A stretch of DNA of 63,420 nt, counting the filler, from Collodictyon triciliatum (lineage: Eukaryota): NCBI GenBank assembly GCA_043381765.1. It is 30 parts of 30 records of this genome, joined end to end, with 100 filler letters (N's around TTAATTAATTAA, not from the genome) between each part and the next. Parts side by side here need not be neighbours in the genome. Positions count along the whole stretch, not along the records: positions 12,745 to 14,766 come from JBHJMP010009706.1; 29 more parts are not named here. One strand, written 5' to 3'. Every line of letters starts with the position of its first letter. Position 1 is the stretch's first letter. The notes beneath the pieces are model-generated. The model saw only the letters and a program-made list of their open reading frames with translations, was not told the origin of the DNA and made no database searches. Both the position numbers and the translations under genes were made by a program. Shown here piece after piece: positions 13,159 to 14,766 of the stretch.

Positions 13159-14766
13159 TTGAAAACTCGGCAGTTTTCTAAAGGAAAAAGTAAAACAAAG
13201 ACTTTCAGACGAAGAAAAGAAAAGAAAAGGTCTGAGAATCTCAAGTCGATTGTAAAGAATGCGGATGACTATTACAAAATCAACGATACAGTTTTATTAT
13301 GTCATAATTTGGTTACCGACACTTATCTGTTTGCAAGATGTTACGTATTGAAATCATAATAGCCCCCAACAATCAATCAAATGTTTTTTTTTTTTGTGCT
13401 CTTTAAAAACAGTCGGAGTAGTTTCACATGATAGACCCCACAGGTTTAAAAAAACTAGATATGAGTATTGACATGATGACGTTTTATCTCTATGATTTTC
13501 GATTCCTTTTGACCCGATAAGAACGATTTCTGTTGGTTGGACTGTCTTACGCATTACTGTACTTGGTGAAGCAAATGTTGACAGCTTATCATAATAACAT
13601 TAAGGAGCATTTTGTAAAGAGGTTATTGCGCTTTATAAATCAAACAGTTCCTGAAAATGAGAATATTGCGGAAGCTATTAAAAGGCAGGGTTACGAAAGT
13701 TAAAAAAAATCATCTTCAAGAATCTCGATATACCGGAACAATATAAAGAATGGGCTAAATCGCATTTGCATCATATCATTCCCAGCGATATTGTAAATGG
13801 TATCGAATATGACGTCAAAGTCAACCCAAACAAGTACATTCCATGTCTGATTTACATGAATCGCATTTTTTGAGGACATTGCAACCAAATTGTTTCAACC
13901 AATCCCTATAAAAACTAACAATATACCATGTCATATTACTCTAGATACTGCATGTTTGATAGATAGCTATTAGTATTAACTGTAAAAACATTATTACTGA
14001 AGAATATATCAAGATGCAAAGAGACCATATGGGATAAGTTCTTTGAAATGAAGAAGAGGGTCTTTCATCAAAGAGACTGCAATTTTAAATACATGATACA
14101 AACAGACGGCTTGGCGGTGTCATTATTGTTTGGAAAGAAAGGCATTTCAAATTCAAAATCCCAATATAATCAAAAAGAAACCAAGAATATGTTTATATAG
14201 ATGAACTTTCTAAAGTGCAGTTATCTTAATTAGCGAAATAATAGTTGCAGTGGACGCAGGCAAGTTTAATTTGGTTTACATGGTGGATGAGACAGGTAAG
14301 AAATTACGTTACACGGCACACCAAAGAAAACATGATAGCAAATCTCTATAAAATCACAAAATACTCATGCGCGAGAAAGAAAAGTACAATGCTTCAGGGA
14401 TGTGCATGGCAGCAGGTTTACAAAGTGCTATTTCTTTTGGTCGCATGTCTTTTGAAGAGAATCAGCAGTTTGAGACATGAAGAGTATCTTTAATCGATTT
14501 AGAGACAAAACCGAGTAAACATAACTCATGCACTGTCGATTATGAATAATTTCGAAAATATGTATCAATGAAACCAAGATGCCAAATAGAATTTTCCAGA
14601 TTTTAAAACAAGTAACTTTTCGAAAGATGATATGGAGGCAGGATGTTAATATAAAAAGAAGTGAACAGTTGTTTATGGACCGAATCAAAAAGACATTTGG
14701 CGATGATGTTGTACTGGCGTATGGAGACTGGAGCAGAAAATCTCCGATGAAACATTTTATGCAAAC
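13159..14766 (+). pseudogene. Decayed Fanzor1 (TnpB-family RNA-guided endonuclease), 3'-truncated by contig end
   Basis: Ordered motifs across frames: LKSIVKN..CHNLVTDTYLFARCYVL; MLTAYHNNIKEHFVKRLLRFIN; YDVKVNPNKYIPCLIYMN; KLFQPIPIKTNNIPCHITLDTACLID; FKYMIQTDGLAVSLLF (QTDG from 14099); RuvC-I IVAVDAGKFNLVYMVDETGKKLRYTAHQR (D at 14253); FRKMIWRQDVNIKRSEQLFMDRIKKTFGDDVVLAYGDWS. Multiple stops and frameshifts. Confidence 0.85.

Follow-up and report, generated by a model that had tools for sequence, protein, structure and literature searches.

How can positions 13159 to 14766 of a DNA assembly from Collodictyon triciliatum hold some 500 codons of coherent protein, scattered over three frames, where no open reading frame (ORF) is apparent? 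This is the question raised by the first-pass annotation of the locus, which had called a decayed copy of Fanzor1, the eukaryotic and viral descendant of TnpB, which acts as a transposon-borne, RNA-guided DNA endonuclease. The simplest answer, and in our judgment very probably the correct one, is that the stretch is a dead, truncated copy of a Fanzor1 gene. The window analyzed, 63,420 nucleotides (nt) in all, is a chain in which we counted 31 contigs of about 2.0 kb each, joined by linkers of the form N44-TTAATTAATTAA-N44; since this concatenation is artificial, neighbors in window coordinates are not genomic neighbors. The Fanzor1 stretch sits within the contig at 12745-14766 (2022 bp), and position 14766 is, therefore, a true contig end.

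Identity of the remnant

The evidence that carries this reading is one long colinear match. In a frameshift-aware alignment to DNA, residues 3-533 of P0003, an intact relative of 648 amino acids (aa), run colinear with 13180-14761 on the plus strand, and 301 of the 521 codons aligned are identical (57.8%), which bears out the earlier estimate of about 500 codons over three frames, with eight frame changes and four stops along the way. The first-pass annotation was to be overturned if the reconstructed protein did not match TnpB/Fanzor RuvC profiles, and the frameshift-aware alignment did not fail. A tblastn search with P0003 against the whole window gave a summed E value of 9e-97. As a control for chance, a hidden Markov model (HMM) of 15 full-length relatives, A2, with 625 positions, was used to search the six frames of the window, in which there are 2319 stop-to-stop pieces of at least 15 aa. 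Seven pieces scored at E <= 2e-11 and one at 0.009; all eight are on the plus strand, within 13147-14815, and colinear with HMM positions 5-509, and the best score elsewhere in the window was E 0.19.

The family to which these pieces belong is read from the same relatives. Piece 13967-14200 finds P0001 (E 6e-12) and P0002 (E 6e-10), both of them partial, and P0001 in turn finds 16 full-length proteins of 603-772 aa, of which P0003 is the best. Searched against the PDB, P0003 matches GtFz1 (2.1e-28), PpFz1 (2.7e-24), and SpuFz1 (3.7e-23) and no other relevant chain, and the A2 profile matches the same 3 proteins: SpuFz1 8gkh at 1.9e-69 over profile positions 4-606, PpFz1 9cf0 at 6.1e-68, and GtFz1 9cer at 2.1e-49. 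No further PDB chain appeared at E <= 0.01 with the A2 profile, and no TnpB or Fanzor2 chain at E <= 10 with P0003; judged from PMC11832414 and PMC10711439, the PDB searched includes Fanzor2 and TnpB structures as well. (Here and throughout, papers are cited by PubMed Central number.)

The motifs tell the same story. The 15 relatives are invariant at T312 and D313, at D364-K367, at Y520 and G521, at E555 and S559, at the cysteines C562, C565, C587, and C590, and at R603, D604, N606, and N610. As aligned, these columns fit the Fanzor/TnpB motif of Bao & Jurka 2013, D-X(125,275)-[TS][TS]-X-X-C4-X(5,50)-RD (PMC3627910). The same source gives two extra residues conserved in Fanzor1, G500 and E536 in SPu-1-1p numbering, which we would tentatively read as the glycine of the GDW motif and E555. 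A TDG in the WED domain and a DPG in RuvC-I are Fanzor1 characteristics according to Yoon et al. (PMC10711439), and the relatives have the triad of D, E before TNB, and D as described for the structures (PMC11423790). At D364, P365, G366, and K367, each invariant in the relatives, the window has D-A-G-K, that is, a change from Pro to Ala. The peptides quoted in the first-pass annotation (QTDGLAVSLLF, VAVDAGK followed by KKLRYTAHQR, and VLAYGDWS) lie where it had placed them (Table 1), and its assignment to Fanzor1 agrees both with this literature and with a profile that matches only the 3 solved Fanzor1 proteins. By every feature that can be tested in the remnant, except an open frame, it is Fanzor1.

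Two further elements of the remnant deserve comment. The basic N-terminal stretch KGKSKTKTFRRRKEKKRS is probably a nuclear localization signal, a role taken from what is described in PMC10530073. The 33-residue insert, located between RuvC-I and the following helices, is common to the window and P0003. Either an insertion specific to the lineage or a short intron that stays in frame and is read through could account for it; with regard to the retained intron, the contigs of other runs have no joint there.

Decay of the copy

What the remnant lacks is the open frame that a nuclease gene requires. The frameshift-aware alignment to P0003 places eight frame changes, near 13357, 13445, 13692, 13868, 13965, 14180, 14227, and 14604, and four in-frame stops, TAA at 13518, TGA at 14478, and TAA again at 14349 and 14547. 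There is no in-frame ATG from the stop at 13144-13146 to the first aligned codon; the start at 13159 in the first-pass annotation is a TTG. An alternative genetic code was rejected as an explanation of the stops, since they are 3 TAA and 1 TGA, only one of them is aligned with Gln, and the eight frame changes would remain.

Are these breaks in the genome or in the assembly? The contig at 12745-14766 was compared with contigs (Logan) of four other public runs, in which depth is not copy number. No run contains more than 0.12 of the sampled words, none has half of them, and the variants from metagenomes may derive from several organisms. X1 is a run that bears the label of one organism; 302 of its contigs align, 23 at 99% identity or more, 83 at 95-99%, 126 at 90-95%, and 70 below 90%, a spread that indicates many diverged variants. 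The many variants in other runs support the past or present Fanzor family that the first-pass annotation had proposed for the host. At five of the eight frame changes, some contigs of the other runs have the opposite, frame-restoring indel (13679 +A, 13866 -1, 13965 -2, 14172 -2, and 14605 +T), and at the TGA stop at 14478, 6 X1 contigs have TCA (Ser), as does P0003. Most of the X1 depth, on the other hand, has the broken state of the window at 4 of these 5 indel sites; at 13679, for instance, the share is 96 of 171, and at 13866 it is 108 of 185. Since the broken state is widespread in X1, the breaks are not artefacts private to the assembly.

The substitutions point the same way. Of 404 differences between the window and the other-run contigs, 40 were listed, 34 of them coding and 31 in aligned codons. 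Among these listed 31, the P0003 residue is found only in the other contigs in 10 cases and only in the window in 1; eight are synonymous, and they fall 15/8/8 over the codon positions. A FastTree tree with 45 rows places the window together with P0003, P0001, and P0002 (100*) on a separate branch, and the end branch of the window is 0.46 long, versus 0.12 for P0003. The breaks, the variant comparison, and the long branch fit a copy drifting without selection. On this reading, the remnant is a decayed copy from a repeat family with many variants, in the genome of a eukaryote that probably lives in freshwater.

The missing C-terminal part

In full-length relatives, RuvC-II, the zinc finger, and RuvC-III occupy P0003 residues 555-610. 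Residues 534-648 of P0003 find no match anywhere in the window (best other tblastn E >= 3.4; likewise for the A2 HMM), and the earlier placement of these parts beyond the contig end, thus, agrees with what was found. Loose contig ends in X1, X2, X5, and X7 continue past 14753-14762, and beyond 14761 these four runs stay in frame with the residues that follow in P0003; the X2 continuation reads A-T-I-G-R-G-L-R-K-I where P0003 has P-T-I-G-S-G-L-R-K-I. Since contigs of other runs continue in frame, the truncation belongs to the contig and not to the family.

Table 1. Coordinates of the Fanzor1 remnant, its flanks, and complete elements among its relatives. Positions are those of the window unless a locus is named.
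Feature	Position	Strand	Remarks
Fanzor1 pseudogene remnant (very probable)	13159..14766	+	N-terminal 82% of the protein (P0003 residues 3-533 of 648); cut by the contig end
Basic N-terminal stretch KGKSKTKTFRRRKEKKRS	13180..13233	+	Read from the sequence; aligns with the basic N-terminus of P0002/P0003
REC-domain helix MLTAYHNNIKEHFVKRL	13575..13625	+	Best conserved stretch; 17/17 residues identical to P0001
TDG motif of the WED domain, in QTDGLAVSLLF	14102..14110	+	T312, D313 invariant, G314 in >=90% of 15 relatives
RuvC-I motif VDAGK	14250..14264	+	Catalytic Asp at 14253-14255, then KKLRYTAHQR; family DPGK, here DAGK
33-residue insert	14385..14483	+	P0003 residues about 408-440; contains the TGA at 14478; absent from 14/15 full-length relatives
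GDW motif, in VLAYGDWS	14723..14731	+	Y520, G521 invariant, W523 in >=90% of 15 relatives
N/linker, contig end	14767..14866	.	RuvC-II (NEFRTS), C4 zinc finger, RuvC-III (RD.N..N), 3′ RNA, and right end missing
GC-rich (0.67; GC, guanine plus cytosine) repeat unit	12745..13025	-	Adjoins the Fanzor remnant; 93% identical over 283 nt to 21603-21884
AT-rich leader	13026..13158	+	Between GC-rich unit and Fanzor frame; depth dips over 12949-13152
Complete Fanzor1 element bounded by terminal inverted repeats (TIRs), giant-virus contig	L081:2637-5952		3316 bp
Complete TIR-bounded Fanzor1 element, giant-virus contig	L083:2638-5919		3282 bp
Complete TIR-bounded Fanzor1 element, giant-virus contig, without transposase	L091:3525-5913		2389 bp

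Relatives, their carriers, and their 3′ RNA

Since the remnant is cut short, the anatomy of the element has to be read from its relatives. A search of 1.84 billion cluster representatives with a profile of P0002 and P0001 (A1) gave 1826 matches at E <= 1e-3. Of the stretches matched in scans with A2, 460 of 596 from metagenomes and 280 of 336 from IMG/VR encode relatives, and many of the latter are named GVMAG (giant-virus bins). An ORF of at least 560 aa is present in 157 of the 160 loci kept, and none of these loci is more than 47% identical to P0003; in the 45-row tree, the nearest labelled rows outside the clade of the window are the IMG/VR loci L085 and L083. A protein search with 14606-14764 gave no closer intact relative, in itself weak evidence.

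The elements of the relatives terminate in inverted repeats of 32-33 nt (TTTACACCYTT... / ...AARGGTGTAAA); complementarity between the two ends is complete in L081 and in L083 and reaches 94% in L091. Element lengths cluster at about 2.4 kb for those without a transposase and about 3.3 kb for those with a DDE_3 transposase. In L081, a divergent ORF of 346 aa carries DDE_3 (1.3e-13) and HTH_28, and a DDE_3-like match is found in 53 of the 160 loci. The same L081 transposase, searched against the window with tblastn, found nothing (best E 0.44). The ends of L081, L083, and L091 are always TTTA-CACC...GGTG-TAAA, which suggests a TA duplication within a TTTAAA-like target. The flanks outside TTTA...TAAA show no repeat, and the duplication is, therefore, our own reading of the ends. 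Giant-virus Tc1/mariner elements that carry Fanzor1 have been described with this anatomy (PMC3627910), and right-end RNAs that include the inverted end have also been described (PMC10711439). With inverted ends, DDE_3, and a 3′ RNA, the anatomy of the relatives is that of the Fanzor1-carrying Tc1/mariner elements of giant viruses.

The 3′ RNA was drawn from 31 loci of the large giant-virus clade. In these, the conserved region begins in the final portion of the ORF and breaks off about 85 nt downstream of the stop codon. With the raw MAFFT alignment as input, RNAalifold predicted no more than 14 pairs, and five helices were afterwards drawn by eye. These comprise 27 pairs; 98.2% of cells are paired, versus 42-51% when the helices are slid, compensatory change is found at 10 pairs, versus 3-5, and none of 500 shuffles reaches this level. 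Rfam gave 0 matches over the whole window, and no RNA run with this sequence came up in the sequencing-run search. As a side observation, L108 has a GC-rich palindromic insertion, with runs of G and of C, at 3691-3911, inside hairpin 2 of its 3′ RNA region; the nested insert, at the loop of this hairpin, is tolerated.

Alternative explanations

Several results weigh against the reading as a dead Fanzor1 copy and are best taken together. Pfam has no relevant family for 8 pieces of the window, and for the relatives returns only PF07282 (Cas12f1-like TNB) below threshold, at best 24.9 bits against a cut-off of 26.3; a precomputed label, PF26935.1, stands on 17 of 18 relatives, but the Pfam search returned no such family. 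The window pieces match the solved Fanzor1 chains directly only weakly (E 6e-4, for piece 13521-13700 with GtFz1 9cer, and 0.05), and membership, therefore, rests on homology that is transitive, through P0003 and A2, and strong. The catalytic E, the second D, the zinc finger, and the RNA are all outside the contig of the window, and the RNA structure, drawn by eye, was counted on the same sequences, from relatives about 36-40% identical to P0003. Moreover, several of the frame changes are in homopolymer runs, where assemblies also err. Given such a Pfam result, with nothing for the pieces and only a shared, sub-threshold Cas12f1-like TNB domain for the relatives, it could be argued that the peptides are chance open stretches or that they come from another TnpB-like family (Fanzor2, TnpB, or Cas12). 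Against this stand the colinear matches with their very low summed E value, a family HMM that matches a single stretch of the window, a profile that finds only 3 Fanzor1 structures in the PDB, and the presence of TDG. We give such an origin a negligible likelihood, and chance or a Fanzor2 or TnpB identity was rejected; with the family profile, no Fanzor2 or TnpB chain comes up at E <= 0.01.

The homopolymers raise a different possibility, namely, that the gene is intact in the organism and that the frame changes and stops are errors in a low-quality assembly of a short unplaced contig. There is a T13 near 13385, an A8 near 13695, and a T6 near 13866, all at frame changes; other contigs have the frame-restoring state at five of the eight; and the contig is one of many 2-kb leftovers. 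However, the four stops arise by base substitution and not by indel, most X1 depth shares the broken state at 4 of the 5 listed indel sites, the private nonsynonymous changes among the listed differences run 10:1 away from the family residue without a third-position excess, the window has a long end branch, and no start ATG is left. Taken together, these make an intact gene highly improbable. Somewhat less remote, although we still consider it unlikely, is that the remnant derives not from a transposon of the host but from a virus-like element, whether a giant virus, a virophage, or a polinton-like element, that is either integrated or a contaminant. Such virus-like elements are a common location of Fanzor1 mariner elements; the closest readable loci are in IMG/VR contigs, many of them GVMAG, with L085 and L083 nearest in the tree and relatives encoded in most of the matched IMG/VR stretches; and the GC-rich unit that adjoins the remnant recurs beside an ORF whose ESM-Atlas neighbors include capsid families. 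But the viral copies are nearly all intact (157 of 160), whereas the window copy is heavily decayed, and a run that bears the label of one organism has hundreds of contigs with 85-99% identity, as would suit a repeat family in a genome. The capsid lead, for its part, has low recognition (1603) and no sequence support from Pfam, PHROGs, or the PDB, and the two contigs concerned are linked by a shared repeat of 281 nt alone. A decayed host transposon copy of Fanzor1, thus, remains the preferred reading.

Comparison with known systems

In working relatives, a DNA transposon carries a protein of about 630 aa, and this protein binds an omega or right-end RNA whose template spans the 3′ end of its gene and the right end of the element. 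This RNA guides the RuvC site (D...E...D) to cut DNA beside a short target-adjacent motif, and cutting presumably helps the element to persist, a role suggested by analogy with TnpB. RNA-guided cleavage has been published for SpuFz1, GtFz1, PpFz1, and KnFNuc (PMC11423790, PMC10530073). By analogy with SpuFz1, GtFz1, and others, RNA-guided cleavage and transposon upkeep may be expected in this lineage, which would once have had the element anatomy of its relatives. The window copy itself is a relic without function: its ATG is lost, its frame is broken eight times and stopped four times, residues have changed privately, and its contig ends early.

The nearest solved systems are SpuFz1, PpFz1, and GtFz1. 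SpuFz1 is matched by the family profile from end to end, and the REC helix, the WED TDG, the RuvC-I DPG, GxW, the E before the TNB zinc finger, and RD are all shared. In sequence, the likeness to these proteins is only about 20-30%, as judged by eye in alignments. Unlike them, the window copy is a pseudogene that lacks the last third of the protein, and P0003 and the window have the insert of 33 residues, which the other 14 of the 15 relatives lack. A second comparison is with the mariner-type elements of giant viruses such as PGv-1, to which the likeness was assigned by anatomy. The readable relatives of the window are bounded by TIRs, some with a divergent DDE_3 transposase (L081) and others without a transposase (L091), whereas the clade of the window and P0001-P0003 forms its own branch, and no TIR, transposase, or target duplication was seen in the window. 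TnpB of IS200/IS605 and IS607, and Fanzor2, share the core of RuvC and zinc ribbon and the logic of a right-end guide RNA (PMC10711439, PMC10530073). In contrast to these, the long N-terminal REC/WED part with TDG is specific to Fanzor1, and the carrier is a transposon of eukaryotic DDE type and not IS607; the relatives sit with DDE_3 transposases and not with a serine or HUH TnpA.

Significance

A Fanzor1 gene is a known kind of gene, and the remnant alone is of little importance. Fanzor1 genes have been known since 2013 and their RNA-guided cleavage since 2023, with thousands of members (PMC3627910, PMC10530073); they are in print as multi-copy genes, in Mariner/Tc1 elements, and in large viruses (PMC3627910, PMC10530073), and one survey gives 3655 nucleases, with up to 122 copies per genome (PMC10530073). 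What the analysis adds is, first, an explanation for a stretch without an ORF and, second, grounds for trusting motif-based calls for the Fanzor1 family. The first-pass annotation had looked to intact copies as new nuclease candidates. The window copy yields no nuclease, and P0003, the closest intact protein, shares only about 58% identity with it. The remnant does point to a lineage, so far without a name, of which intact members of 648 aa (P0003 and P0169) are found in public data; the lineage is related to the mariner-type elements of giant viruses and could serve as a source of new Fanzor1 variants.

A larger proposal may be put forward tentatively, although on present evidence we lean against it: the window and P0001-P0003, proteins carried as “hypothetical protein” or unnamed and marked by the 33-residue insert, may form an unannotated Fanzor1 lineage, beside the giant-virus mariner-type elements, that was amplified in a freshwater eukaryote into a large repeat family, for the most part dead, with live members remaining. 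If this is true, and some of the members with frame-restoring states in other runs are fully open and keep the 3′ RNA, the host would have an active Fanzor1 system related to that of viruses, and exchange between virus and host would have been followed by amplification in the genome.

The left flank and neighboring contigs

The contigs of the window are unplaced and stand in order of falling length (2025 to 2010 bp), with two shorter ones at the start. Those neighboring the contig of the remnant have GC contents of 0.29-0.48, microsatellites, and reading frames of WD40 type, and these features suit a eukaryote.

To the left of the remnant, the GC-rich unit (12745-13025; 21232-21888) belongs to an otherwise AT-rich genome and has a high k-mer depth in three other runs. 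It holds the start of a minus-strand ORF (ATG 12996-12998) that is frameshifted here and open over 208 aa at 21232-21855. The two contigs diverge after 13025 and 21888, and the 208-aa ORF starts about 30 nt from this point; the ORF of the unit has no Pfam, PHROG, or PDB sequence match. Going upstream, 2 contigs of X2 part from the window at about 13090, and 2 of X5 and 1 of X1 do so at 13156; the left end of the Fanzor repeat is between 13026 and about 13156.

In the second of these contigs, an ORF pair of 122 and 305 aa at 21900-23183 on the plus strand, with one TAA between them (22266-22268), is 5′-truncated at the GC-rich junction. Its ESM-Atlas neighbors (0.95-0.96) have Capsid_NCLDV in 10%, MCP_V20_C (virophage) in 22%, and DJR-like in 68% of members, and the pair is possibly a capsid gene of an integrated virus-like element, a weak lead given the low recognition noted above.

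The junction of the GC-rich unit with the leader is itself spanned by a 13-nt direct repeat, TGTGGTTTTTGTG, at 13000-13012 and 13029-13041. The 29 nt or so that follow each copy are loosely alike, and the repeat may be a small tandem duplication.

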